The position numbers were made by a program, and so were the translations under genes. A model generated the notes under the pieces. That model did not search any database, was not told the origin of the DNA, and saw only the letters and a list, made by a program, of their open reading frames with translations. This document shows positions 45,297 to 64,000 of a stretch of 64,000 nt of DNA, in pieces. The stretch covers positions 32,180,001 through 32,244,000 of the forward strand of contig NC_087251.1 of assembly GCF_037042905.1 (NCBI RefSeq). Reading direction: 5' to 3'. Each line of letters opens with the position of its first letter. Position 1 is the stretch's first letter. Source of the stretch: Lytechinus pictus (lineage: Eukaryota).

Positions 45297-48079
45297 GAAG
45301 CAACCCAGATAATCTTTGCAATAACTTTACTCCTCTATGACGAAGTTTTGTCCTTCTTTATTTGTATGCTACTATGTTTTTCTGAAATGTACTTAAGATG
45401 ATTTTATCATCATTCCGTTTTTTGCATGTTGTTTATACTTGATAAGCATGAATTGATGTAATTATAAATATGATATGCAGTTATTCAGTATTCAAATTCG
45501 TGTTTTTTCTTGAATCAATATACGGTGCTTTTTTCAACATTGTGTGTAAATCGATTTAATACGCACGTTTACTTAAGTAAAATAATATTTATATATCATG
45601 CATGTAATATGACTCAATGTAGGCCGACTTATATCTTGAATTCTGATGTATGAATTTATTACGTGTTACTTTGTGATGAGGGAGCAGAGACTTAAATATG
45701 TCTTCCATACTTCACTGTTCACGTGATTCACTGTGTTATACTGTAAATATATTTATAAATGAATATTTGCATGACATAATGCTTGCAGTGTAATTATTTA
45801 ATCACACACTAACAACTCGAACATTAATTCAAAATTCCAGACATGTTTGCATACGGGCACCTATTTTCACTATCAGTGAAGAGTACACGACCCGGTACAC
45901 GATGACTGGAATATGAGCTTATAATGAGAGAGAGAGAGAGAAAGGGGAATGATAAACAATTTGGTAACATAGATTTATATGAAGTTCGCGGGGTCAGTGA
46001 GAGGAGGAAGGAGTGGAAAGTAGTATTGAAGAGGGAGTAGAAGGGGGGGGGTGAGGGAGTGAGGTTGATCGATTCATGGATGTAGTAGAGACATGATGAA
46101 TTGTGACTTGTTATAGAAGGTATAGGAGAGACGGGATTAAGAGATGGGGGTGAGAACGAGAGGGAGAGGGGGGGAGTGGCGAAGAAGGTCATGAAATAGA
46201 AAACGGGTAAAATGCATGCACATATTTTTTTGGAAACTTACAAGAATAGCGTGATTTGTTAGTCAGATTATCAATGTATAAGACTCTGACCAACAGGGCC
46301 AGGTCGTACGGTATAGTACGTAGCCCGACTTCCTTGTCTATCGATATCTCACTGATCGCAAATGATCAGAGGAGCGTTTCATCAACATAATCATGTTATT
46401 CGATAAGTTGCCACATCTGACAACTTTCATTGATTTTGTGTGGCTATCAAGCATATTTTCTATGGTCGCATTTCCTTTATGGTAATTGTTAAAATAAAAT
46501 AAAAACTTTGTCGAATGAAACATCCGACTATAGTTATTTGATGAAACGCTCCCGGGTGAGACGGTTATTACGAAAGAAAAGTCATCTTCTTTATTTGGGT
46601 ACATGGCATTGTAAGTATATACTGCTGTGTTTTCACATAATTACTTTTTTCAGTTTTTCTGAACAGTGCTTTTTAGTCGCAACTGGCACAGAGCAAAATT
46701 TGCAGTTGATGTCAGCGTAATCAGCCAAAAATTTGGACCTCTTCTAGACAAAAAAAAAGAAGAAGCTAATTTCATGATAGATTTTTACACAATATATATT
46801 CAGAAAATGATACCCCTTTTGATCACCCCTTTTCCTTTCCTTTTCTTTCTTTTTCACCCTTTTTTCTAGGTCGTATTTTTTTTTTTTTTATTATTATTAT
46901 TATTTTTTTTTTTTTTGGGGGGGGGGGGTCCATGGCCCCTACCCCCTATACCAAAATAATATTATTAAACATCTAGTAGAAGATATTCAACAAATAAGTG
47001 ATATTCATTTGAAAAATGTACTAGGGGTCAATTCAACTCCAAAAAGTGTTATGAAGAAAAATAACAATGATAGAGGCAAATTAGGTGAATAAATGCTTGC
47101 AAAAAAAAAATCATTCGAAAGTTGACATTTTGAGACGACTTTTTTCTCCCCCCCCCCCCCTCTCTCTCTCTCTTTCATCTTTTTTTGTTGGTCGTATTTT
47201 ATTCGGGGGGGGGGGTGTCTATCTATCTATCTATCTATCTATATATATGTATACAGGCTCCTGTACAGAATTCGAAATACGACCCCCCCCCCTCCCACGA
47301 GGGCGCCCATGGCTGGACGTGATGGAGCAAAGGGGAATCTCCAGCACTGTTAAATTACATATCATTGGCCAAAAACAGAAAAGTGCGTAATAGGTGCTAA
47401 CAGAAATCAATATAAATAGATAAAAGAAAGGAGAGATAGAGAGAGTTTTACTAATAAAAAAGGGAAAACGCTGAAATTATACATTTTCAGCATCCAACCA
47501 CAGACAAACATGAATGTGGTGTCAATTATTTTGTACTTAGACTTCTAAATTTCTAAACTAAATTATCCAAGCAAATGAATAAAAAAATAACAAAACAAAA
47601 CAAATCTTTCAGACTAGGCTATATACAATATGTAGTTGAGATAATAACAACTAAAAATTAATACTTTTTGTGTAAAGGGTAGCCTTATTTATGTAAAAAG
47701 CCTTCTTTGTATCACAACATAAGAATGAAAAATCTAGAAAAATACATGCCGTATTTCTCAAAATGAAGAGTGAGATAGTTTGGTATAGAAGTTGTACAAA
47801 TTTTAGACATACTAGTTTTGATACCCCCCCCAAAAAAAAAAAAAAAAAAATCTAGAAATTTTGACTCAATAATGGATTTGAGGCCGATTTGAGGTTACTA
47901 ACTTTAATCGCGACTTTACATGATTGTTAATTGAATGGTATAAAACTATTCTGCTTACGTAATTCATCATAATATTAAAAATAATGTTTTTAACCAAAAT
48001 ATAATTTTGATCAATGAAACCTTTTGTAGGTATATAGTGATAACTTTTAACAAATTTGAGCTAGAATCAATTTAATTAA

Positions 48080-48663
48080 AGGAGTATGAAACTCTTGGAG
48101 CAAGTTAGCTTTTGTGAAAGCAGAAAAATCAAAGAATAAGATCAACAAAAGTTTGAGTAAAATAGGACTAGCAATAGAAGAGTTATGAGCATTTGAATGT
48201 CGAGATCACTAATGCTATGGAGATCCTCCTCTTGGCAATGCGACCAAGATCTATGATGTCACAGATGAACAACTCTCCCCTTTTGGACACTGAAAATATA
48301 CCCCAAAACATCTCTTTTTGCTCATTCTAATCATATGACAAACGATTCATCAATGATATAATGTTGTGAAACCTCTGTACTTGTCCTCTCATAAAGAGAA
48401 CACATCACCTTGTGATAGACTCTATAAAAATGAGAATATAAGTGAAATAAGTACTAAAGTAATGAGGGAGTTGTACGTGTGTGACATCACAGATCTTGGT
48501 CGCATTGCCAATGGGAGGATCTACATGGCATTAGTGATCTCAATATTCAAATGCTCATAACTTTCTTATTATTCATTCAATCTTCCTCAAACTTTCAACA
48601 ATATGTTTCTTTGATTTTTCTCTTTGATATGGATTCAGCTGGTTTCAAGGGTTTCATTCTCCT
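48080..48663. mobile_element. Palindromic TTAA-flanked MITE (Kolobok-like)
   Basis: TTAA|AGGAGTATGAAAC ... GTTTCATTCTCCT|TTAA; internal inverted repeat GAGATCACTAATGC...GATGTCACA / TGTGACATC...GCATTAGTGATCTC. Confidence 0.85.
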
Positions 48664-49227
48664 TTAAGAAATAGTTTTTTGGGGGTCATTGTCATGGGAA
48701 ATATAAAAATCTTTTTAGTTTTTATACTTTCATCCTGTTTTTATGAGATTGAGATCATAATTTGAATACCAACTTTCAATAATCCTGATATAGAGATATA
48801 TAGCAAAATGAGATATAATATTATCAGTAGAACTATATATCTTCTCCTTCTTTTTTCGTCTTTGGGTCCGGCTTTGGGTATACTGCCCAATGCTCCACAA
48901 TGGGAGCCAATCGGGCAGAAAGTGCACTGATGTTGATGGCGCGGAGAGAAAATATACATTTTAGTCCTGCTATGCTTTGCATAATTAATTTGAAGTACAT
49001 GTACGTTTCGCTTGAAGGTTTCGGTGCCTTTGATTTCAATGGTTGGGGTGTGAGAGAGTTTTAGTCTGGGACCCTGGGATGGGTCTTGGGATGAATGAAT
49101 ACGTGTAGCAGTTTTTTTTTGGTGGAGATGGGGATGAAGCTAATTTGTAGGCCTACCCTGATTTTTATCTCTGTGGCCCATGCCTTCTTCTTTTTTTTAT
49201 ACTAGCAGACGACGAAGAGCAGTAAAT

Positions 49228-52200
49228 CAAGGCCCTATATAAACAAGGTTGCGACAACAGGGGTCAAAGGTCAAATTTGAAGGATCTCGAATAGTTCCAA
49301 CCGGGCCTTTTTGTCGACTGCTGCCATTGGAAATGCGTGCAAATTTTTGAATCATTTTTTATAATTATATCGGAAATCGACGTTAGAAATTCATTTTTAC
49401 ACTGCACATCCATATCAATATATTAGCGACCACATAAATTTATCAAATTTGTACAATCTTATAACAAAATCCGTGAAATATCGTTGATTTGAAAAATGGC
49501 AACCGAGTTCGTCGCAAGCCGCAAATGCTCACTGCTGCTGGTAGCGAGCGGGACGCTGCACTAATTTTCCCCGGAACTGTCGGGCTGGATGTAAGGTTCT
49601 GCTGGCCCCCCACGGGTCGTTTGGAGAGCGAGAGGTAAGTATGTACCGGAATGTCATGTGGTGCCATAAATACTAGTTTCATGTCCTAAATTCTTATTGT
49701 AGATTTTGCGCCGTTGTAAATTTAGCTGAATTTGATTTTTTTTACTAGAGTAGGCCCTACTCAAAAACATGAATGATTTGAGCATATCTTTGTGCTTGTC
49801 TTTAGTTTGAGTTTGACTGAGTGGGCCCTTAAGGCTTAATTTATTTATTTTTTATTTTATTTCTGATATTTAACATGTTTGAATAGGCCACAGGGCGGCA
49901 CATATCATCAACTTGGTGGTTTTCCATGTGGCCCTATTAACAAAAAGTACAGCAAAAAATGTTACTAGATCTATTAATAATACCAAATAGATCTAACGTT
50001 AGATCTACTAGTACTAGATCTACATCAGTACATGCAGTGAGTTGAAATAAACATGACAAAATGTACAGGCAAAAAATGTATGCAAACATGTTATAAGAAA
50101 GATTATTGGTATCCTTAATTGGGAATTTGTTCATTTAATATTAAAATCAACTATGACAATTTGAATCAAGCTTGTGAATTTAGATTTTGAAGATGAAACA
50201 TATATTGCCTATTAATTGATGGAAAGTGAGATAAGTGCTGTGCAGAATGCAGATATTCAATTCTACTAACCTTATTTTTAATAAGAACAAAACTAATTTC
50301 AAGAATTCAATTCATTTTGGGGGCTTGGGGCCAATGCATAAAATGAATTTACAACCAGGACTGTACCATATAGTAAAGTGCTTTATCCAGTTTAGATCAA
50401 AAGAACATAAAAAAAGAAAGTAAATATTTATTCATTTCAATCACCACACAGCAAAAGGTTTACAGGATAACGTTAGGTTACTTGTATAAAATTTTACATT
50501 GGATAAGTGGTCTTGTCAGTTGTCACCAGAATAAGGCTAGTGCCAGTTTCCCCTTATATTCCTATCGCTACAGAATTTTTCATAGCGTTCTTAATATTTC
50601 TACCCTTTATGCCCTGTAAAAACATACCATGGTGTTCTTTGGATTTTATACCATTTCAATGCCTTACATACATGTACCTCGTTGCTCTCGAGATCAACAT
50701 GCTTTATTTTATTTTCATATATGATACAGGCCAGGGTTATCCTTATAGTTGCCACCGTGATGTAAAATTATTCCGAAGGAAAGTGAAATACCCAAGTAGG
50801 CCTAGTACAGTACTAGACCAAAAGCTTTAGTGTCTGTATTTGGTTGTTTTGCTGAACTGTGTTGGCTTTTCTCACTTAGTAAAATCCCTAGAAATGGTTA
50901 TTCCTGTCTAGCCTAGTTCCAATTTGGCTATAAACTCTTTGTTGTGTACTGGGTGAGTTCAATTCTCACGAGGCATATTCGAACATCATTGACCACCAAG
51001 TCTATGATAACCCTAAATGCTTTCATGGTGTCAGTACATGGACAAATGAGTTTAGTAATCCAGTTGGTTTGCATGTAGCTTCCTTTTTTTTTTAAATATT
51101 ACTTTCATTTCTGCACTGCCAATACTTTGCACATTTTCTAGACCAAAAATCTTCAATCTCTGTACCATCTCAGATGTTGTTCTGGAAGTTTCCATGGCAA
51201 AAAAGAATAGTGTAGAAAAAAACATCTGAGATAGTGTAGTAGGTTTCATGGTCATCATGTATCTTTCTTGGGCAAATGTTGGTCCTGAAAAGGACCACCC
51301 AATCTTGACGTTGCGACAAGTGTGTTCTTGTCGTCCTACTCATGCCTTGTGTACTGAAAGCCCTCTCGCTCAGACAGCAAGTATTGTATGTGCTAGTCCT
51401 TACGTGGAGCCACACTTACAACAAGTTTCATTCGGTCTGTGCCTGCAGACTAAACTAATGTGGCCATGGCACCTCCTCACCCATCCAATGCCATATAAAG
51501 TTCATATTGGCATTAAAATGTATTTGCTTAATAAAACAACCTCTTTACAACTATCTAAATTAACGCATGATCCAACTATATTATCATTACATGTACACTA
51601 AATATGAAATAAAAGAAACAATAGGTAGAGAGTGAGAGATTGACCCTCATTTTATGCTGTTGCCACCAATGAAAGTTCTTAATTTAAATTTGGAACTTCA
51701 TGAGAGTCGAACTCATCCAACATTGCACAAAATGCGGTCAGAAGACAGGCGGAATGATACATGATGAAAGATTTAAAGGAGAACATTTCAAGCAAATAAG
51801 AAAGATTGACTGCACAATGTAGCCCTACATGTATGTTATATAATCACATCTTATTAAAATCATGATGAAAATCAAACAATCATACTTACACAGCTTACTG
51901 GCTTATCCAGTAGTTCCTCTCATCCAAAACAGATCAATCGGCAGCAATTACATGTAGGGCCTATTTTATTTTCCACAATCAAATTGAAAAAAAAATCTAC
52001 ATTTAGATCTAACTTAGATAAGTTTGGTGCATCAATGATTATCTTGTCAACTAAGCACGTATTATCATTGGCTTTTGTAATAAAGTTATCACACCATACA
52101 TATCAACAGAGTAGAGGTCTACATGTGCATGTATGCTAAATTAGGCCTTTAAAGTTTCTTTGAAAACTACAAAGAATTGATTTTAATTCCAAACCATTTC

Positions 52201-54110
52201 AAATTACTTGGCCTAGTCGAAGAAATTTTTGGTCTAGATACCCAACCTGTCCGGACATGCAACTAGTGGTATGATAGGGGCACTTGTCCAATACTACAAG
52301 GTTGTGATAACATCCATGTGGTCTTAAACCACTTTTAAAAAATGCAGTGCTAAGCTAACACCACTTTTATCACAAGGTTGTGATAACCTTGTCCACAGTT
52401 AGTAACCTGTGTGGTGAACAAGATTGTCTTGAATCTTGAAGAAGTACTTTTTGAGTGTCAACAAGATTGTCAATTTTCTCTTGATCTAGACTGGATGAAT
52501 ACTTGATCAACAGTCAATTTTGACCATACAGTGAATTCATCATCATAAAAAAATGCCTTGGCACAAAACTAAATTGAATTCTTGAAATTTATAATTTTTT
52601 TTCTAATTAAAAAGAGATTAAAAAGAGAGTCTGTGGAGATGAAGATCTGCATCAGTCACAGAGAGCCTCACAAAAATATGCTCAAAATTAAAAGTTTTTG
52701 AGCGCTCTTGTGAATAAAAAAAAAAGATTTCTAAGTCTAGAATGAAAACAAATAACTGAATGGATCTGTCTTTTTGAGTGTGCATTGTACATGAATGTTG
52801 CATAGACTCAAGACATAAAGAGTGGTTGGAGAGTGCAAGAGGATGGGGTGCTTCCACTCTTCCCGCAATTCGACAAATTTTTACTTTTTCCAGGAAAGGT
52901 TCCAGAAATGAAAAAAATTCCAGGAAATTCAGGGAAATCCACAAATTACAAGGGGGGCCCCTTGAGAAGCAAAATTTAAAATTGTAATGTAGAAATGCAG
53001 AAGTGTGCCCCCCCCCCCTTTGAACGTGAAGTCCCTTTTATTTTTGCATGTCAATTTTTTCCTCAGGAAAATGTGCCTCCCCTTTTGGAAAATCCTGGAT
53101 CCGCCCATGATTACAATTAAATGACAATTTACCGTAGCAACTTTAAAATATTCATGTAATATTTTACAAAGATTTAGATCTTCCTCCGGATCCAGACATA
53201 GGCTCCGTCGTCGGAGCTCAAAATTTTCTGCGCTCGTCATTTCGTAATTTTGTTCCTATTTTTCAAGAGGACATGATGAACAAAAATGTTTTATTTCTTG
53301 ATTTTGGTCACTTCTTGGACCAAATTTAGGCTCACTGTATTAATTATTATTGCCAGATTTTCATTAAAAATCAAAATGGAAAATTCCAGGGATTGTCTAT
53401 GAATTTCAGAAAATTTGGGATTCATTTTCAGGAAATTTGTTTTAGATCTGTGGAACATTGATGAGGGGTTTGGTGTCCGGACACTGAAAAATAAAGCCTT
53501 GTATTTGTAGAAGTTTAGGCTTGCTGTTGTTTATCTCACTTGTTTGTTTTTTTATTTTATCTCAAATTCTCACTTCTCAGCAAAATAAAGCAAAAAATAT
53601 AGCTTGAATAATGCTTATCACCATCATTATTTGTTCTTTATAATATTTTCTTACATTCTGAGCTAAAAAAAATCAAAGACATTGCTTGTATTTTTTGTAA
53701 ACTTTTCAAAATTAAAGGAGATGTCGTGAGTCCGGACGGCCCAACCCGTCAGGAAACACAACCACAGCGTATATCGGGCTACTGAGCCAGCCGCACTGCC
53801 GGCTACAGTTGCCAGTCCCATACCGTATCTTTACTGTCATGTTTACGCCTTGGAACTATTAAAAATTAGTAAAAAAGCATGTTAAAATTCAAAATTATTG
53901 CAAACCAATCATATCAAAATGAAGGACATAAAATTCTCTTTAAAAACTATCATTTTGTTTTTATCAATAACAATTTCAATTACCTGAAATTTGCTGTCGA
54001 AAAATCTCCCCCATTGACTTTGTACACAAACTTCGGTGAGTTTGGAACTATTCAAAAGCTCCATGAGCAAATGACGGCAACTTCCGGTGTCGCAACCTTG
54101 TTTATATAGG
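49228..54110. mobile_element. Element A: 4.9-kb TIR DNA transposon (29-bp TIR), probably a decayed hAT
   Basis: Left TIR CAAGGCCCTATATAAACAAGGTTGCGACA (49228-49256). Right TIR TGTCGCAACCTTGTTTATATAGG (54088-54110) lacks its last 6 bp. Preceded by CAGTAAAT. Minus-strand LAHTILAV/SERAFSTQG remnant near 51310-51397. Confidence 0.85.
51310..51397 (-). pseudogene. Remnant resembling the hAT transposase C-terminal dimerisation domain
   Basis: Minus strand reads L-A-H-T-I-L-A-V, then after a frameshift S-E-R-A-F-S-T-Q-G-M-S-R-T-T-R-T-H-L, resembling LAxxxLxxPxSxxxxERxFSxxGxxxTxxRxxL. Confidence 0.45.
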
Positions 54111-54584
54111 TAGGCACTTATGATCCAAGTTTGAAAGGAGACTCGTAAAATGACGTCACTCTCGCCGATGAATATTCATTAGATCGTGGTCGTGCGTGTT
54201 CAATACACACTGCGTGCAGGCATGCAGATAGTTATATGCGAGGAACTTTGGCTCAAGTTGTCAAATAACGTGTGTGTGTGTGCGCGTGTGTGTATCATCG
54301 GCTGGTAGTATTCCATGCTGTCTAAGACTTCAAACGCGTCGGAGAGAGTGCATGGCAATTCGGTAAAACGAAGTTTCCGATATAAAGAGATAATAAAATA
54401 ACACTATGTACAGTACGTTGAGAGGCAAATGTCAGATCAGGGAGGCAGGAGTACAATCAGGTTTTTTTTTAAAGGGAAGAATAGTGTAAAATAAAAGGTA
54501 TTATATATATAGCCAAATGGTCTAGGTGAGGGAAGTGAACAATGATGTTTTTTTAAAAAAAGAATGAATATACCTTACCTGAAT

Positions 54585-57433
54585 ATTATGGTGAAGCCAA
54601 TTTAAAAGGAGGTGAGACAAGTTTCAATGGAGGTTTAAAAAAATAATAAACTGTATTATGGTGAAGCCAATTTAAAAGGAGGTGAGGCAAGTTTCAATGG
54701 AGGTTTAAAAAAAAAAAAACTATACTAAGAATTATGGTGAAGCCAATTTAAAAGGAGGTGAGGCAAGTTTCAATGGAGGTTTTTAAAAAGAATAAACTGT
54801 ACTACAAATTATGGTGAAGCCAATTTAAAAGGAGGTGAGGCAAGTTTCAATTGAGGTTTTTAAAAAGAATAAACTACAACAAATTTAAAAGGAGGCGAGG
54901 CAAGTTTCAATGGAGGTTTTTAAAAAAGAATAAACTGTACTACAAATTATGGTGAAGCCAATTCAAAAGGAGGTGAGGCAAGTTTCAATGGAGGTTTTTA
55001 AAAAAGAATAAACTGTACTATACAAATTATGGTGAAGCCAATTCAAAAGGAGGTGAGGCAAGTTTCAATGGAGGTTTAAAAAAATAAACTGTATTATGGT
55101 GAAGCCAAATTAAAAGGAGGTGAGGCAAGTTTCAATGGAGGTTTTTAAAAAGAATAAACTGTATATGGTGAAGCCAATTTAAAAGGAGGTGAGGCAAGTT
55201 TCAATGGAGGTTTTTAAAAAGAATAAACTGTATATGGTGAAGCCAATTTGAAAGGAGGTGAGGCAAGTTTCAATGGAGGTTTTTAAAAAGAATAAACTGT
55301 ACTACAAATTTGAAAGGAGGCGACGCAAGTTTCATTAGAGGTTTTTAAAAAGAATAAACTGTACTACAAATTATGGTGAAGCCAATTTAAAAGGAGGTGA
55401 GGCAAGTTTCAATGGAAGTTTTTAAAAAAGAATAAACTGTACTACAAATTATGGTGAAGCCAATTTAAAAGGAGGTGAGGCAAGTTTCAATGAAGGTTTT
55501 TAAAAAGAATAAACTGTACTACAAATTATGGTGAAGCCAATTTAAAAGGAGGTGAGGCAAGTTTTAATGGAGGTTTTTAAAAAGAATAAACTGTATTATG
55601 GTGAAGCCAATTTAAAAGGAGGTGAGGCAAGTTTCAATGGAGGTTTTTAAAAAGAATAAACTGTATATGGTGAAGCCAATTTAAAAGGAGGTGAGGCAAG
55701 TTTCAATGGAGGTTTTTAAAAAGAATAAACTGTACTACAAATTATGGTGAAGCCAATTTAAAAGGAGGTGAGGCAAGTTTCAATGGAGGTTTTTAAAAAG
55801 AATAAACTGTATTATGGTGAAGCCAGTTTAAAAGGAGGTGAGGCAAGTTTCAATGGAAGTTTTTTAAAAAGAATAATTAAGTGTACTACAAATTTAAAAG
55901 GAGGCGACGCAAGTGTCAATGGAGGTTTTTAAAAAGAATAAACTGTACTACAAATTTAAAAGGAGGTGAGGCAAGTTTCAATGGAGGTTTTTAAAAAGAA
56001 TAAACTGTACTACAAATTATGGTGAAGCCAATTTAAAAGGAGGTGAGGCAAGTTTTAATGGAGGTTTTTAAAAAGAATAAACTGTATTATGGTGAAGCCA
56101 ATTTAAAAGGAGGTGAGGCAAGTTTCAATGGAGGTTTTTAAAAAGAATAAACTGTATATGGTGAAGCTATATTTAAAAGGAGGTGAGGCAAGTTTCAATG
56201 GAGGTTTTTAAAAAGAATAAACTGTACTACAAATTTAAAAGGAGGCGAGGCAAGTTTCAATGGAGGTTTTTAAAAAGAATAAACTGTACTACAAATTATG
56301 GTGAAGCCAATTTAAAAGGAGGTGAGGCAAGTTTTAATGGAGGTTTTTAAAAAGAATAAACTGTATTATGGTGAAGCCAATTTAAAAGGAGGTGAGGCAA
56401 GTTTCAATGGAGGTTTTTAAAAAGAATAAACTGTATATGGTGAAGCCAATTTAAAAGGAGGTGAGGCAAGTTTCAATGGAGGTTTTTAAAAAGAATAAAC
56501 TGTACTACAAATTATGGTGAAGCCAATTTAAAAGGAGGTGAGGCAAGTTTCAATGGAGGTTTTTAAAAAGAATAAACTGTATTATGGTGAAGCCAGTTTA
56601 AAAGGAGGTGAGGCAAGTTTCAATGGAAGTTTTTTAAAAAGAATAAAGTGTACTACAAATTTAAAAGGAGGCGACGCAAGTGTCAATGGAGGTTTTTAAA
56701 AAGAATAAACTGTACTACAAATTTAAAAGGAGGTGAGGCAAGTTTCAATGGAGGTTTTTAAAAAGAATAAACTGTACTACAAATTATGGTGAAGCCAATT
56801 TAAAAGGAGGTGAGGCAAGTTTTAATGGAGGTTTTTAAAAAGAATAAACTGTATTATGGTGAAGCCAATTTAAAAGGAGGTGAGGCAAGTTTCAATGGAG
56901 GTTTTTAAAAAGAATAAACTGTATATGGTGAAGCTATATTTAAAAGGAGGTGAGGCAAGTTTCAATGGAGGTTTTTAAAAAGAATAAACTGTACTACAAA
57001 TTTAAAAGGAGGCGAGGCAAGTTTCAATGGAGGTTTTTAAAAAGAATAAACTGTATATGGTGAAGCTATTTAAAAGGAGGTGAGGCAAGTTTCAATGGAG
57101 GTTTTTAAAAAGAATAAACTGTACTACAAATTTAAAAGGAGGCGAGGCAAGTTTCAATGGAGGTTTTTAAAAAGAATAAACTGTACTACAAATTATGGTG
57201 AAGCCAATTTAAAAGGAGGTGAGGCAAGTTTCAATGGAGGTTTTTAAAAAGAATAAACTGTATTACAAATTATGGTGAAGCCAATTTAAAAGGAGGTGAG
57301 GCAATTAGTTAATGGAGGTTTTTAAAAAGAATAAACTATATTACAAGTTATGGTGAAGGCAATTTGAGAGGAGGTAAGGCATGTCTACAATGATTTTTTT
57401 TTAAAGAATGATAAGTGTAGAATATAATTCAAA
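54585..57433 (+). repeat. Satellite array, left arm (77/70/69/62-bp monomer variants, about 40 units)
   Basis: Consensus AAATTATGGTGAAGCCAATTTAAAAGGAGGTGAGGCAAGTTTCAATGGAGGTTTTTAAAAAGAATAAACTGTACTAC. Confidence 0.97.
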
Positions 57434-58846
57434 TGATGAAGCCATCTTGAGAGGTGCATGAGGCAAGTCTACAATGAGGTTTCTAAAAACAATGAATAGT
57501 GAAGAAAAAGATCGCAATTGCTTTTAATAATCCACAAAATTGTTTAGTTATTTATTTCATGCAAATTGCTATTAATTGATTATGCTCATTTGTGCATAAT
57601 TAGTATACTATACCTATTCCTCTAACTCCCTAAATAAAGCTCCAAATGTTCTAATTTTTGGTTTAGAAACTCTTTGTGGTGTTCTTCGATAATGTATTTC
57701 TTGTGTTTTTACCTTTGTATTGCATTGTTTTTTTTCAACGATGCTCGGACTCTCGTAACAGCATAAAATAAATCAGTTTAGTTCAACAAAACTAAAAACA
57801 ATTAGGCATTCATGAATTTTGGTTGAAAACGCATATTCCATTGACGTGGTACATAAATATCACAATTTTGAGCCATTTTTGTCTGATATGCACTTACAAA
57901 TTGTTTGGTAATTTTCAGAACCCAGTACCCGGGCTTCGCAAAACTGGTCTCAAAACATGCAAAAGACTTTTTTTTTAAATCGCAGAGCTCAGAGCCCCCC
58001 CCCCCCCTGCGTAAATAGGTTAAGTTTGCATTAATTTTGAACTTTTCCATTCCCAAATACGTAATATCCCCTCCCCAAAAATGCAATTGTCACTGAAATG
58101 GAATATACATAATATATTTTTTAATAAGCCATGTTTTGCAAAATAATCATCATGTCATCCTTTGTCAACAAGAAATCTGTACATGTCCTCTGGAAGAAAA
58201 TAATACCTCGGCCGCCTATTAAATTCTAAGTTTTGATTTTGTAAGTATTTTACTTAGCAATTTGGCTGGCTTATCAAAATGCTTAAACTTGTATGCAGAT
58301 CAGATCTCAGAATTTACCTTATCCAAATTGAACTAAATACTAATACCCATTGTGATGTTATAAATTTTGAGCCAAATAGTGCCAAATGTGTGAATGTATT
58401 TCTGTGCGTATCATTTTTGTATATGTAGACTTAAGTCTAGTAGATGGCTGACTTACATTTAAGCAAAATATTTAGCCAAAAAAAATGCAATTGAATACCA
58501 AAGATGGATAAGTATTTTACTTTTGCAAAATACTGAGTAAAATATACTTGAAATTGTGGCTTTAAGAGTAGCATTGAATACCGGCCCTGTTCCTCATCAT
58601 CATTATCATCCCACTACTTGACTGAACCATATAGTATTAAACAAAGCTAATTCCACATGTTCAGGGAGGAATTAATCGTTGTATCACTTGACATTAAGGA
58701 GAAACTTAGAATATTTCATATTTCCTATAATAAAATACAAAAGAAATAGTGTGAGGATGACGTCATCAGTCTCCTCAGGTGCATACAGACCAGGATGTGC
58801 ATATAACTGTTTTTTTTAATTAAGCAAAACTTTAAAATGTCATAAC

Positions 58847-61122
58847 TTTGAATTATATTCTACACTTATCATTCTTTAAAAAAAAATCATTGTAGACATG
58901 CCTCACCTCCTCTCAAATTGCCTTCACCATAACTTGTAATACAGTTTATTCTTTTAAAAAACCTCCATTAACTAATTGCCTCACCTCCTTTTAAATTGGC
59001 TTCACCATAATTTGTAATACAGTTTATTCTTTTTAAAAACCTCCATTGAAACTTGCCTCACCTCCTTTTGAATTGGCTTCACCATAATTTGTAGTACAGT
59101 TTATTCTTTTAAAAAACCTCCATTGAAACTTGCCTCGCCTCCTTTTAAATTTGTAGTACAGTTTATTCTTTTTAAAAACCTCCATTGACACTTGCGTCGC
59201 CTCCTTTTAAATTTGTAGTACAGTTTATTCTTTTTAAAAACCTCCATTGAAACTTGCCTCGCCTCCTTTTAAATTTGTAGTACAGTTTATTCTTTTTAAA
59301 AACCTCCATTGAAACTTGCCTCACCTCCTTTTAAATTGGCTTCACCATAATTTGTAGTACAGTTTATTCTTTTTAAAAACCTCTATTGAAACTTGCGTCG
59401 CCTCCTTTTAAATTTGTAGTACAGTTTATTCTTTTTAAAAACCTCAATTGAAACTTGCCTCACCTCCTTTTAAATTGGCTTCACCATAATTTGTAGTACA
59501 GTTTATTCTTTTTAAAAACCTCCATTGAAACTTGCCTCACCTCCTTTTGAATTGGCTTCACCATAATTTGTAGTACAGTTTATTCTTTTTAAAAACCTCC
59601 ATTGACACTTGCCTCACCTCCTTTTGAATTGGCTTCACCATAATTTGTAGTACAGTTTATTCTTTTTAAAAACCTCTATTGAAACTTGCGTCGCCTCCTT
59701 TTAAATTTGTAGTACAGTTTATTCTTTTTAAAAACCTCCATTGAAACTTGCCTCACCTCCTTTTAAATTGGCTTCACCATAATTTGTAGTACAGTTTATT
59801 CTTTTTAAAAACCTCTATTGAAACTTGCGTCGCCTCCTTTTAAATTTGTAGTACAGTTTATTCTTTTTAAAAACCTCCATTGAAACTTGCCTCGCCTCCT
59901 TTTAAATTTGTAGTACAGTTTATTCTTTTTAAAAACCTCCATTGAAACTTGCCTCACCTCCTTTTAAATTGGCTTCACCATAATTTGTAGTACAGTTTAT
60001 TCTTTTTAAAAACCTCTATTGAAACTTGCGTCGCCTCCTTTTAAATTTGTAGTACATATTATTCTTTTTAAAAACCTCAATTGAAACTTGCCTCACCTCC
60101 TTTTAAATTGGCTTCACCATAATTTGTAGTACAGTTTATTCTTTTTAAAAACCTCCATTGAAACTTGCCTCACCTCCTTTTGAATTGGCTTCACCATAAT
60201 TTGTAGTACAGTTTATTCTTTTTTAAAAACCTCCATTGAAACTTGCCTCGCCTCCTTTTAAATTTGTAGTACAGTTTATTCTTTTTAAAAACCTCCATTG
60301 AAACTTGCCTCACCTCCTTTTGAATTGGCTTCACCATAATTTGTAGTACAGTTTATTCTTTTTAAAAACCTCCATTGACACTTGCGTCGCCTCCTTTTAA
60401 ATTTGTAGTACAGTTTATTCTTTTTAAAAACCTCCATTGAAACTTGCCTCGCCTCCTTTTAAATTTGTAGTACAGTTTATTCTTTTTAAAAACCTCCATT
60501 GAAACTTGCCTCACCTCCTTTTAAATTGGCTTCACCATAATTTGTAGTACAGTTTATTCTTTTTAAAAACCTCTATTATTGAAACTTGCGTCGCCTCCTT
60601 TTAAATTTGTAGTACATATTATTCTTTTTAAAAACCTCAATTGAAACTTGCCTCACCTCCTTTTAAATTGGCTTCACCATAATTTGTAGTACAGTTTATT
60701 CTTTTTAAAAACCTCCATTGAAACTTGCCTCACCTCCTTTTGAATTGGCTTCACCATAATTTGTAGTACAGTTTATTCTTTTTAAAAACCTCCATTGAAA
60801 CTTGCCTCGCCTCCTTTTAAATTTGTAGTACAGTTTATTCTTTTTAAAAACCTCAATTGAAACTTGCCTCACCTCCTTTTAAATTGGCTTCACCATAATT
60901 TGTAGTACAGTTTATTCTTTTTAAAAACCTCCATTGAAACTTGCCTCACCTCCTTTTAAATTGGCTTCACCATAATTCTTAGTATAGTTTTTTTTTTTTT
61001 AAACCTCCATTGAATCTTGCCTCACCTCCTTTTAAATTGGCTTCACCATAATACAGTTTATTATTTTTTAAAACCTCCATTGAAACTTGTCTCACCTCCT
61101 TTTAAATTGGCTTCACCATAAT
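58847..61122 (-). repeat. Satellite array, right arm (inverted; mainly 77/62-bp variants, about 32 units)
   Basis: Reverse complement of the left-arm monomer. Confidence 0.97.
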
Positions 61123-61203
61123 ATTCAAGTAAGGTATATTCATTCTTTTTTTAAAAACATCATTGTTCACTTCCCTCACCTATAGATCATTTGGCTATAT
61201 ATA

Positions 61204-62944
61204 CAGTGCGTCCCAAAAAAAACTATACACTTTTGAAATGGCTGCCAAATAAAAAGTATATCACTTTGGGGGGAAAGACTTATACATATGGAAAGCCGAT
61301 AAAGTCATCTTTCAAATTACACCAAAATGTTGGAAAACTATTCATGCTTGAGTGAGCACTACCCGCTTAAACAAAGGGTATGAAAATTAGGGTGGGCAGG
61401 AATTAGCCTTTCGGTTTCTTTCAGTTTTTGAGAGGCGAATCCCTTGGAACTTGCAAACTTGAGGGTGTTCTGATGAATTGATGGTCATTCATTATCAATT
61501 TAAATTGTTAGAGCAAATTTCATGAATTATCAAATTGAAATTCCATGCATGAGTAAGCATGAATTGCAATCTTTAGTGAAGCATTTTACTTACAATGTGG
61601 GTCTCAGCAGTGTGTTCATTGGAGTCAGGAGAATAGGAGTAAGAAATGACTTCAGTGTGTGAAGTAAGCTGATGGGAAAAGGGTCAACAGAACGTTTAGC
61701 CTCCCTCCTACAGGTCCGTCCCTCCCCCCTCCTGTTGAGATTGAGACTGATTGCTATTACATGTACGCATTAAGTGCAAAGCGGACTGTCAATTTGATAA
61801 TAAATTCTGAAAATTAGATCATCAACTTTTATCTATCAATCATTCAATCAACAATCTGTTAGTAAATAAACTCAATCAAATATTCACCTTTTTCAATACA
61901 TTATCAATCAAACATTCAGCTTTTTCAATAAATGATTTCATAAATTATCATAATTAGTCAAGTTCTTAATAAATCATTCAATGGAAAAGAAAGACCCATC
62001 AACCATCAGTCACTTGGCATTTTAAGTTTTAAATACCAACCAAGAGAAAGAAAGGGGTGGAGGGCGGGGTGAGTACATGACATGTAATTTGTAAGAGAAC
62101 ACAAAGAAGAATGCCCCTTTAACCCAGTCTTACCCTATCTCATCCCCTTGCATGTAACACCATCACATTACTCTGACTCTCACAAGCACACTTGCTAAGA
62201 TCCACATAATAAACGAAAAATGCTACACTAAAATTACAATTCCTGTTTACTCATGCATTACATTTCAATTTAGTAACTCGTGAAATTTGCTTAAGAAACC
62301 AAAACGGATCTCCATTTATCAGTAATTTAGCATAACACCCTTAACTTTGCAAGTTCCAAAGGACTCACCTCAAAAAAAAAATGGAATTAAGGCTAATTCC
62401 TGCTCACCCTAGCAAAGGCTAGTCTCTCAGGAGGGGTGAAAGGGGTAGAGAGAGAGAGGGGGGGGGGTTATAAGTGTTCTGTTGACCCATATCCCGTCAA
62501 CCTACTTCCCCCACCTAAGTCCTATCCATATTCTGACTTCCATGAACACATTGCTGAGATCCACTTAAAAAGTGAAAAATTGTATTTCATGTTCACTCAT
62601 ACATTAAATTTCAATTTAATAATTCTTAAAATTTGCTCTAAAAACCTAAATTGATAATGCTTGATCATTGATTTATCAAAACATCCTCAACTTTGCAAGT
62701 TCCAAGGGACTCGCATCTCAAAAACTGAAAGAAATTGGAAGGCTAATTCCTGCCCACCCTAATTTCCATACCCTTTGTTTTAGTGGGCAGTGCTCGCTCA
62801 AGCATGAAAAGTTTTCCAACTTTTTGGTGTCATTTTAAAGTTGACTTTATAGGCTTCCATGTATGTAAGTCTTTTCCCCCAAAGTGATATACTTTTTATT
62901 TGGCAGCCATTTCAAAAGTGTATAGTTTTTTTTGGGACGCACTG
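61204..62944. mobile_element. Non-autonomous Tc1/mariner-type element nested in the right arm of element B
   Basis: TA|CAGTGCGTCCCAAAAAAAACTATACACTTTTGAAATGGCTGCC ... GGCAGCCATTTCAAAAGTGTATAGTTTTTTTTGGGACGCACTG|TA; imperfect TIRs longer than 250 bp; empty site in the left arm at about 54503. Confidence 0.92.
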
Positions 62945-63374
62945 TATAATACCTTTTATTTTACACTATTCTTCCCTTTAAAAAAAAACCTGATTGTACT
63001 CCTGCCTCCCCTGATCTGACATTTGCCTCTCAACGTACTGTACATAGTGTTATTTTATTATCTCTTTATATCGGAAACTTCGTTTTACCGAATTGCCATG
63101 CACTCTCTCCGACGCGTTTGAAGTCTTAGACAGCATGGAATACTACCAGCCGATGATACACACACGCACACACACACACGTTATTTGACAACTTGTCTCT
63201 GGAGCCAAAGTTCCTCGCATATAACTATCTGCATGCCTGCACGCAGTGTGTATTGAACACGCACGACCACGATCTAATGAATATTCATCGGCGAGAGTGA
63301 CGTCATTTTACGAGTCTCCTTTCAAACTTGGATCATAAGTGCCTACCCGGTTTATATAGGGCCTTGCAGTAAAT

Positions 63375-64000
63375 CAAGGCCCTATATAAACAAGGTTGCG
63401 ACACCGGAAGTAGCCGTCATTTGCTCATGGAGCTTTTGATTAGTTCCAAATTCACCGAAGTTTGTGTACAAAGTCAATGGGGGAGATTTTTCGACAGCAA
63501 ATTTCAGGTAATAACAATTGTTATTAAGAAAAACAAAAGGATAGTTTTTAAAGAGAATTTTATGTGCTTCATTTTGATATGATTGGTTTGCAATAATTTT
63601 GAATTTTAACATGCTTTTTTACTAATTTTTAATAGTTCCAAGGCGTAAACATGACAGTAAAGATACGGTATGGGACTGGCAACTGTAGCCGGCAGTGCGG
63701 CTGGCTCAGTAGCCCGATATACGCTGTGGTTGTGTTTCCTGACGGGTTGGGTCCGGACTCACGACATCTCCTTTAATTTTGAAAAGTTTACAAAAAATAC
63801 AAGCAATGTCTTTGATTTTTTTTTTAGCTCAGAATGTAAGAAAATATTATAAAGAACAAATAATGATGGTGATAAGCATTATCCAAGCTATATTTTTTGC
63901 TTTATTTTGCTGAGAAGTGAGATAAAATAAAAAAAATGAAAAAAAGTCAGTGAGATAAACAACAGCAAGCCTAAACTTAGAAATACAAGGCTTCATTTTT
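63375..64000. mobile_element. Element A': second, inverted copy of element A (right end first), truncated by the window edge
   Basis: Begins with the full TIR CAAGGCCCTATATAAACAAGGTTGCGACA and is the reverse complement of about 53487-54110, with scattered substitutions and small indels. Confidence 0.9.

Follow-up and report, generated by a model that had tools for sequence, protein, structure and literature searches.

A sea urchin palindrome as a probable nest of four transposons from three families, with two relatives in one 8-bp target

The window, the whole 64,000-nucleotide stretch of Lytechinus pictus DNA analysed here, raises the question of how a palindrome of more than 10 kb came to have one 8-mer and one 17-mer repeated at its transposon ends. 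The original prediction was that three elements of one transposase family (A, B and an inverted A') had used the same target three times, or that A-B-A' moves as one giant composite. Our analysis makes it likely that four transposons belonging to three families are nested at this locus, which is then no stack of three relatives. A and the inverted A' are ~4.9-kb non-autonomous members of one family, with their R ends facing, both in a single 8-bp target. The 8-mer CAGTAAAT was found at 49220-49227, left of A, and at 63367-63374, common to A and A' (both + strand), as predicted. A third copy was expected where A' should end, ~4.3 kb past the window, and it is there: the 9 kb of contig beyond the window contain the end of A', ...GGGCCTTG, at extended coordinate 68266, and directly after it come CAGTAAAT (68267-68274) and then GTACTA. 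Three copies are present because A and A' occupy one and the same 8-bp target. The word itself occurs eight times in the window against four expected, so it is not rare, and what is telling is where it lies relative to the termini. Three sites, 49228 (+), 63350 (-), and 63375 (+), carry the 17-mer CAAGGCCCTATATAAAC, for which chance predicts zero occurrences.

Element A begins with a 29-bp terminal inverted repeat (TIR), CAAGGCCCTATATAAACAAGGTTGCGACA (49228-49256, + strand), and its main body (49228..54108, + strand; ~4.9 kb, non-autonomous) runs from the L end to within 8 bp of the R tip. Next to it lies element B, a Foldback-like element of 9,239 bp (54109..63347, unstranded) with the termini GGTAGGCACTTATGATC...GATCATAAGTGCCTACC. 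The 9 bp to the left of B, GTTTATATA (54100..54108, + strand), are part of A's right TIR and form the left copy of B's target duplication. The right copy (63350-63358) is offset from B's right terminus by two extra bases, CG (63348..63349, + strand), and lies within A's own right terminal 17 nt, GTTTATATAGGGCCTTG (63350..63366, + strand), which B has cut off from A's body. After the second copy of the A/A' target site duplication (TSD) comes A' itself (4,892 bp, - strand), R end first and inverted relative to A, from 63375 to the end of the window at 64000 and on to 68266. The outer flanks of the locus around CAGTAAAT are GACGAAGAG on one side and GTACTAACCCC on the other. A (49228-54110) mirrors A' (68266-63381) with ~95% BLAST identity, and the two differ by substitutions and indels as had been noted. 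A second mirror pair lies within B (54109-57440 and 63347-58840). The mirror image noted earlier is present, and the large palindrome is made up of the inverted pair A/A' together with the inverted arms that belong to B itself; it is not the product of a giant stack of three elements.

Whether CAGTAAAT is a TSD or part of a longer TIR was decided by other copies of the A family. Perfect 8-bp direct repeats that differ in sequence by copy flank 18 of 19 of them (at L035 the repeat is shifted by 1), and an empty paralogous site has its 8-mer once, which identifies CAGTAAAT as a TSD. Strong re-targeting of sites, which the original prediction had proposed, holds genome-wide: where termini of the A family and its sister family X abut, the distance between them is exactly 8 bp in 22 of 24 cases. 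With spacers of 0-30 bp allowed, all six A-A junctions have one of 8 bp. The spacer is also 8 bp at 14 of 15 A-X junctions and two of three X-X junctions. The same 8-mer occurs three times at four of the six A-A loci (the window, C3:64689939, C11:4135260, and C20:6377347), that is, with one TSD length between the termini and the same 8-mer outside both, as in a same-site double insertion. At the other two, the 8-mer was seen twice (C14), or unequal 8-mers lie on the two sides of a footprint (C20:10912682). In a five-element array (C3:5029125-5059704), ACTTTTAT is present at five of six boundaries, and an X2-TCCGATAC-X3 doublet lies inside the ACTTTTAT stack. Re-targeting is a general habit of the A family. 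In the window, the reuse of one target by one family stands for A and A', which account for two uses and three CAGTAAAT copies; the third use, by B, does not. In another sample, one contig of run X1 contains an X-ACGCTTG(T)-A junction. Public runs share at most 0.12 of the words of the locus, and the contigs of four runs on 47500-50500 match repeats only.

Element B consists of unique arms (54109-54505 and 62945-63347), inverted arrays of a 62/77-bp satellite that are unequal in length (54584-57381 and 58871-61123), and a unique centre (~57440-58840). Its right arm alone carries element C (61204..62944, unstranded), a MITE of 1,741 bp with ~500-bp TIRs starting CAGTGCGTCCC. Compared with the paralogous left arm, which is uninterrupted at 54505, the insertion of C brought a gain of one TA. 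This TA duplication and the TIR start CAGTG, which is typical of the Tc1/mariner type, place C among the MITEs of that type. B has long inverted tandem-repeat arms, family-specific termini, and its own TSD, as expected of a Foldback-like element. We surveyed 40 of 231 candidate B arms, the window's own and 39 others. Among these 39, 35 start at query position 18-22, i.e., at GGTAGGCAC, and none carries the 17-mer. Termini could be read at each of the eight other copies of B that were inspected, and the 9-bp TSD is perfect in five, has one mismatch in one, and is unclear in two.

These observations bear on the reading of A, B, and A' as three stacked elements of one transposase family whose A/B junction was later deleted. 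The 17-mer does adjoin B's right end, and the left A/B junction is the mirror of the right junction minus ~35 bp. This "35-bp deletion" is exactly what insertion of B into A's TIR predicts, and a deleted junction is absent. The 39 arms surveyed elsewhere lack the 17-mer, B-family copies end in termini of their own with TSDs of 9 bp, and the window's B is flanked by GTTTATATA like a simple insertion into A's TIR, all of which leaves the stack with almost no probability. B is a Foldback-like element of a family unrelated to A, and its insertion point lies within the right TIR of A, 8 bp from the tip. Because B lies inside A's right terminal repeat and is flanked by GTTTATATA, the 17-mer at 63350-63366 is A's own tip. 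The 17-mer was correctly placed at three termini and is shared by A and A'; it does not belong to B. The apparent 17-bp shared terminus and the "deleted junction" both stem from the Foldback insertion into the TIR. Mirror halves would also result from one fold-back duplication (hairpin or palindromic) or from an artefact of assembly, and the symmetry over ~19 kb fits such an origin; none of the public runs was found to contain the locus. We consider this origin very improbable, since A and A' are 2.4% apart and fall into separate clades, C is found in one arm only, the two satellite arrays are of unequal length, the outer TSDs repeat in direct and not in inverted orientation, and the layout T-A-T-A'-T recurs at other loci with other 8-mers.

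Independent arrival of A and A' is supported by their distances and by the occurrence of C in a single arm of B. Their p-distance of 0.0237 is close to the family median (~0.023), the nearest copy is at 0.0151 for A and at 0.0092 for A', and the two fall into different clades with supports of 0.95 and 0.98. The distance table and tree cover 23 of ~76 A copies; the misoriented L051 is to be ignored, and L041 was left out because its second terminus lies beyond the analysed stretch. We infer that A and A' are independent insertions. The tree also shows a parallel between two doublets, in which A groups with C3a and A' with C3b in the same R-to-R orientation, a pattern that simple independent hits do not predict. 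This parallel fits a composite, A-(B)-T-A', that was built elsewhere and moved here by its two outer ends. Other observations favour such movement: the related array has a doublet whose inner 8-mer is foreign, X2-TCCGATAC-X3, with the local ACTTTTAT on its flanks, which seems to reflect a composite move there, and three sites with unlike flanks hold A copies that contain a nested LINE fragment, so an element with cargo is still mobile. The inner 8-mer of a composite should be foreign; here and at C3:64689939, however, it is identical to the outer TSD, and a composite is for this reason not needed at this locus. Furthermore, the locus is bounded by an L end on each side, whereas two different ends are required for P-type synapsis; the P-type 5' and 3' ends are described as having distinct spacing (PMC7776569). 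A composite move to this site is therefore improbable. Returning to two separate insertions, terminal branches are 0.0101 for A and 0.0054 for A', and 0.0114 for C3b and 0.0062 for C3a, with the shorter branch on the motif-side element in both doublets.

The 8-bp TSDs of the A family would also suit a hAT-like family, with the double insertions representing a hAT hotspot as reported for hobo tandems. The start of the A TIR, CAAGG, fits YARNG, the pattern of hAT termini. hAT excision is not known to leave transposon ends, and the hAT target pattern is nTnnnnAn. In A-family footprints at most 17 nt of each end survive, and only one of 17 TSDs fits nTnnnnAn; the TSD length agrees with hAT, the target pattern and the footprints do not. 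Hobo is also described as forming tandems with an 8-nt junction (PMC5932611). We regard a hAT affiliation as rather unlikely. None of the 17 mini-footprints retains more than 17-18 nt of an end, in a scan that could detect up to ~27 nt per side, and in 10 of them one side or both retain the whole 17-mer. The X family likewise has footprints, of 17+2+17 and 17+3+17 nt. These footprints appear to match the 17-nt staggered donor cleavage of P-type elements, a cut presented as a special mark of P transposase (PMC7776569). The 8-bp TSD of the P superfamily is present in A, A', and sister family X. The A family is thus probably P-like, and its transposase would probably be of the P/THAP9 type. A and X have no similarity to the P-like proteins of this genome, and for this reason the P assignment is based on TSD length and footprints only. 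Past the 29-bp TIR the L and R ends diverge and have different conserved words, GGTCAAAGGTCA for L and CCGGAAGT for R, and these subterminal words are common to A and X.

P-type transposases are encoded in the genome. There are eight PF12017 matches, and one P-like gene on C12 is intact (817 aa, with HTH, RNaseH_N, GBD, and RNaseH_C domains). A/X TIRs were not found within ~3-4 kb around this intact gene, and the 17-mer, with four or fewer mismatches allowed, was not found within ~1.5 kb of any of the eight PF12017 loci. No autonomous element with A TIRs was found. A has no ORF longer than 139 aa, and eight window ORFs had no Pfam match. In A, A', 19 other copies, L040, L041, and one X copy, a search for transposase ORFs returned only nested LINE reverse transcriptase, and tblastn of two genomic P-like proteins against A and X gave a best E value of 0.76. 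A word match in L056 was shown to be due to chance.

At most sites a 9-bp motif, GCGCCATCT, lies 6 bp beyond the TSD on one side, and it is at offset 8 after the TSD in nine of 28 unique flanks. The mean in a shuffle test for this offset was 0.035, and none of 2000 shuffles reached nine. Elsewhere in the 28 unique flanks the motif occurs only twice at other offsets and not at all on the other strand. It is present in all 15 W repeat flanks (14 at offset 8, one at offset 9) and also at L080, L082, and L083; the 14 tabulated motif sites, which include this last set, were chosen because they bear the motif. The motif is degenerate beside the present locus (ACCCCATCT, 7/9 matches, 68281-68289 in extended coordinates, after GTACTA), even weaker at the C3 doublet (GCGTCCCCA), and missing at L038. 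Apart from these 9 bp, no relationship is seen between the flanks of one site and those of another. An Rfam scan of the 2 kb next to the site gave no match that attains the gathering score. Targeting of small-RNA genes, as by Dada, was considered and set aside, with no tRNA or snRNA gene match in Rfam beside the site. No enrichment of CAA/TTG was visible by eye in the 3 nt beyond the TSDs; the model of a TIR-restored palindromic target comes from PMC2577343. GCGCCATCT resembles published site words of YY1 (AAgATGGCggcg) and CTCF (CCACCAGGGGGCGC).

The junction spacing and the motif suggest motif-guided, repeatable targeting by A and its sister family X. The main determinant of the target would be GCGCCATCT, located on one side at 6 bp from the 8-mer. 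Neither the motif nor the TSD copy next to it would be destroyed by an insertion and, as sites fill up repeatedly, there is no sign of target immunity, so the same site could be hit again. A and A' would have arrived in two separate cut-and-paste events, in which the second staggered cut, made on one of the two CAGTAAAT copies created by the first insertion, duplicated that copy again. A' adjoins the motif and is probably the later arrival; A bears nested elements and is probably the older. B, an unrelated fold-back transposon, jumped into the tip of A later. In the widest form of this proposal, for and against which we see the chances as even, the P-like families are true site-specific integrators at a 6-bp ruler distance from GCGCCATCT, perhaps by way of a bound host factor or a transposase DNA-binding domain; several families then hit one site repeatedly, and stacks of up to five elements record the order of arrival, newest by the motif and sometimes moving on as composites.

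Same-site double insertion of the P type is already known from Drosophila, where it arises in the way proposed here for A and A'. PMC5932611 describes Drosophila P double insertions whose junction holds the 8-bp TSD and also states that P dimers form at strong target sites, and PMC2577343 describes inverted P pairs exactly 8 bp apart in singed-weak. The likeness is close: in both systems one family uses one target and keeps the 8-bp TSD between and outside the elements, and A and A' are inverted exactly 8 bp apart as in singed-weak. Unlike Drosophila P, A and X are ~4.9-6.6-kb non-autonomous elements in a host genome of ~812 Mb with no known autonomous partner, and their stacks can mix families (A with X) and contain as many as five elements. 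The choice of site in A and X involves an external 9-bp motif at fixed spacing, whereas that of Drosophila P involves a 14-bp palindromic motif centred on the TSD. Tn7 at attTn7 is a case of fixed-distance targeting, and the A family, Dada, and Tn7 all insert at a set distance from a recognised sequence that is left intact; the comparison with Tn7 ends at target immunity, of which the A family shows no sign. Dada targets multicopy small-RNA genes (PMC3706591), whereas A-family flanks are otherwise unique. According to the same source, strict target specificity had before Dada been seen only among non-LTR retrotransposons.

B has counterparts of its own. Like Drosophila FB, it lacks a transposase and has a short unique centre between long inverted arms that consist mostly of tandem repeats, and the FB target duplication is 9 bp, as in B. 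The TSD of Galileo is 7 bp, and the GGTAGGCAC termini of B are unrelated to those of A and X. Galileo is named as a P-superfamily member in PMC4168063.

By itself, the window is an ordinary nested-transposon locus with a P-type double insertion. In a narrow literature search, motif-guided P-like elements did not come up. Should integration really be directed by the motif, A and its sister family X would be a rare case of sequence-guided cut-and-paste transposons in an animal genome. They would also offer a natural case in which target choice, missing target immunity, and palindrome formation can be studied together, and a possible lead for targeted integration tools.

The window corresponds to C7:32180001-32244000 in a eukaryotic assembly of 812 Mb. 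It contains three copies of the 17-mer CAAGGCCCTATATAAAC, at 49228 (+), 63350 (-), and 63375 (+), where chance expectation is none. The 8-mer CAGTAAAT adjoins it at 49220-49227 and 63367-63374. In the 9 kb of contig sequence following the window, a third CAGTAAAT comes directly after the end of A', the inverted relative of transposon A, which terminates in ...GTTTATATAGGGCCTTG at extended position 68266. Self-comparison identified three mirror pairs in opposite orientation: A and A' (49228-54110 versus 68266-63381, ~95% identity), the arms of the Foldback-like element B (54109-54505 versus 63347-62945, 97.5%), and a satellite array with a unit length of 62/77 bp (54504-57440 versus 61203-58840). 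A is oriented left to right and A' right to left, and the two ends of the element are unlike past a common 29-bp TIR. The original prediction described A, B, and inverted A stacked at one 8-bp target with a deleted A-B junction. Its raw observations of 17-mers, 8-mers, and mirror halves are real, and A' ends beyond the window and is followed by CAGTAAAT, as forecast. Just left of the locus, window positions 48100-48650 contain a short, very high-copy repeat with summed contig depths of 10^5-10^6 in a related organism's runs.

A genome search using the B right arm including the 17-mer as the query yielded 231 candidates, of which 40 arms were scored. The other 39 begin at query position 18-22 (n = 35), 10-13 (n = 3), or 27 (n = 1), and none of them contains the 17-mer (0/39). 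All eight other copies with flanks read have the termini GGTAGGCACTTATGATC...GATCATAAGTGCCTACC; their 9-bp direct repeats are perfect in five copies, differ at a single base in a sixth, and are ambiguous in the remaining two. A ninth B terminus was found at locus L002. The order in the window is ...CAACCTT-GTTTATATA-[GGTAGGCAC...GTGCCTACC]-CG-GTTTATATA-GGGCCTTG-CAGTAAAT, in which GTTTATATA was duplicated on B insertion, plus two stray bases (CG). Given these termini and 9-bp repeats elsewhere, and GTTTATATA on both sides in the window, B (54109-63347) is a simple insertion in the right terminal repeat of A, 8 bp from its tip, and the 17-mer at 63350-63366 is the tip of A itself. The triple stack was thus mistaken, B being unrelated to A with its own termini and repeats, and the 35-bp "deleted junction" was rejected, as insertion of B into A predicts the apparent gap. 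The Tc1-like MITE C (61204-62944; TIRs starting CAGTGCGTCCC) is nested in the B right arm, and comparison with the uninterrupted left arm shows that its insertion gained one TA. ORFs of A, B, and C had no match in Pfam. The landing point of B is also no more than ~20 bp from the symmetry center of the 9.8-kb A/A' inverted pair (window 54100-63366), and the palindrome spacer has grown from 8 bp to 9.2 kb through B. The proximity could be coincidental, or B could favor centers prone to cruciform formation.

Other A copies are flanked by perfect 8-bp direct repeats of varying sequence (18/19), and an empty paralogue of one A site has the 8-mer in single copy, which makes CAGTAAAT a target duplication rather than a segment of the TIR. 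The mirror halves could instead have been made by fold-back duplication or an assembly artefact, against which several lines of evidence argue. Across 23 aligned A copies, out of about 76 in the genome, A and A' are separated by a p-distance of 0.0237, close to the median for the family, and the closest copies among these 23 lie at 0.0151 from A and 0.0092 from A'. A and A' are placed in separate clades (supports 0.95 and 0.98, ignoring the misoriented row L051), the three 8-mers are in direct orientation, and C is found in one B arm only. Among public sequencing runs none contains the locus, and contigs aligned to it cover repeats only. A and A' are thus most likely separate insertions into a single target. 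Same-site re-targeting, the core idea of the original prediction, was right.

Junctions were counted genome-wide between outward-facing termini of A and its sister family X, with a spacer of 0-30 bp allowed. X elements are 6.0-6.7 kb, have the TIR CAGAGTTATCAATAGACAGAGTGGCGA, and have the subterminal words CCGGAAGT and GGTCAAAGGTCA in common with A; the X 17-mer terminus has 97 genomic matches. Spacers are exactly 8 bp in 6/6 A-A junctions, in 14/15 A-X junctions (14 bp in the other), and in two of three X-X junctions (10 bp in the third). Same-site stacking is the rule in the A family. At G000:C16:5931551-5937784 (L088), for example, X is followed by the TSD CAACGAAC and an A terminus, and excised doublets at C11:4135260 and C20:6377347, with one or both partners gone, have footprints between three equal 8-mers. 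A five-element array, X1-A-X2-X3-X4 (G000:C3:5029125-5059704; L046, L083-L086), has ACTTTTAT at 5/6 boundaries. The odd boundary is X2-TCCGATAC-X3; because this 8-mer differs and the X3 left TIR is reduced to a 17-mer, the X2-X3 doublet seems to have formed elsewhere and moved into the array as a composite. An exception with unequal 8-mers reads A (left end)-GCAACAGT-22-bp footprint-ACAGCAGT-X-like terminus (L078, G000:C20:10912600-10912800; junction at C20:10912682).

The doublet at C3:64689939-64699771 is like that of the window, GCTGAATG-A(L>R)-GCTGAATG-A(R>L)-GCTGAATG, with another 8-mer. Both doublets are right end to right end, and the tree groups A with C3a and A' with C3b, the two A copies at C3. 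Successive waves of two subfamilies on a limited set of sites could have produced such parallel doublets; alternatively, doublets may have been copied by some process in which the inner 8-mer is renewed.

Flanks aligned on the TSD contain the motif GCGCCATCT (variants GCCCTCT and CCCATCT), which begins at the seventh base past the 8-mer and is confined to one side. The core motif is present at offset 8 in 9/28 unique flanks (shuffle mean 0.035; 0/2000 shuffles reached nine), twice at other offsets in these flanks, and never on their other strand. It is in all 15 flanks belonging to the end of W, another repeat hosting insertions (CCAACGAACGTAGAGGGCAGCAACAC-ACAAGCGT-GTTGCTATAAGGAAGG...). The W 8-mer ACAAGCGT, 26 bp from the W tip, is a hot spot struck repeatedly by A, X, and footprints (W-repeat sites L001-L010, L022, L030, L034, L035, L043, L044, L047, L049, L051, and L053), and ACAAGCGT or ACGCTTGT occupies 7/15 A-X junctions. 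The motif was also found at L080, L082, and the outer left flank of the five-element array. By tally, it is at about 17/23 sites; three flanks are hidden by another element, and the others are weak or negative. Target 8-mers oriented on the motif have no consensus. In the window, the motif-like ACCCCATCT lies right of A' at 68281-68289 (L031:4281-4289).

This external motif is the likely reason for re-targeting. The motif and the adjoining TSD copy would outlast an insertion, so that the site would stay a target, and the motif-adjacent element should be the youngest. Terminal branches are 0.0054 for motif-side A' versus 0.0101 for A, and 0.0062 for motif-side C3a versus 0.0114 for C3b; nested insertions in the window are only in A, far from the motif. 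From these two doublets, we infer that the motif-side element is the younger. As a lead only, the motif resembles words printed for a YY1 site (AAgATGGCggcg; PMC4669652) and a CTCF site (CCACCAGGGGGCGC; PMC11525195).

No transposase ORF is encoded in A, X, or longer copies. Mini-elements made up of two termini only number 17 in the genome, plus a few more at other loci. The 17 never retain more than 17-18 nt per end, where the search pattern would admit about 27 nt per side, and 10 have the full 17-mer on at least one side. Excision footprints are 22-46 bp, with at most 17-18 nt per terminus (L003, L005, L006, L010, L014, L022, L030, and L078-L082, among other places), and several are of a 24-bp form expected if the TATA stretch pairs in two 17-nt overhangs. 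A 17-nt staggered cut is described as a peculiarity of P transposase (PMC7776569). The capped footprints and 8-bp TSDs point to the P superfamily, of which A and X are probable members. The genome has eight PF12017 matches to P-type transposase genes, none bounded by A or X TIRs. One, at G000:C12:261277-263730 (L055, L089, L090), is an intact 817-aa P/THAP9-type reading frame that encodes the full set of four domains of a P transposase (HTH, RNaseH_N, GTP-binding insertion, and RNaseH_C) and has no TIRs detectable within about 3-4 kb; the gene may be domesticated or of another family. One and the same fragment of a LINE reverse transcriptase (ORFs of 312-368 aa) is nested in three A copies at different sites (L035, L038, and L041), and the A tree pairs L035 with L038 as sisters. 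A cargo-loaded A element was apparently mobilized again.

Re-targeting of one site by A and A' matches the double insertion known for Drosophila P elements, which is described as arising at strong target sites with the 8-nt TSD in the junctions (PMC5932611), and singed-weak is reported to have inverted P pairs exactly 8 bp apart (PMC2577343). What may be novel here is stacking that is genome-wide, cross-family, and linked to a motif.
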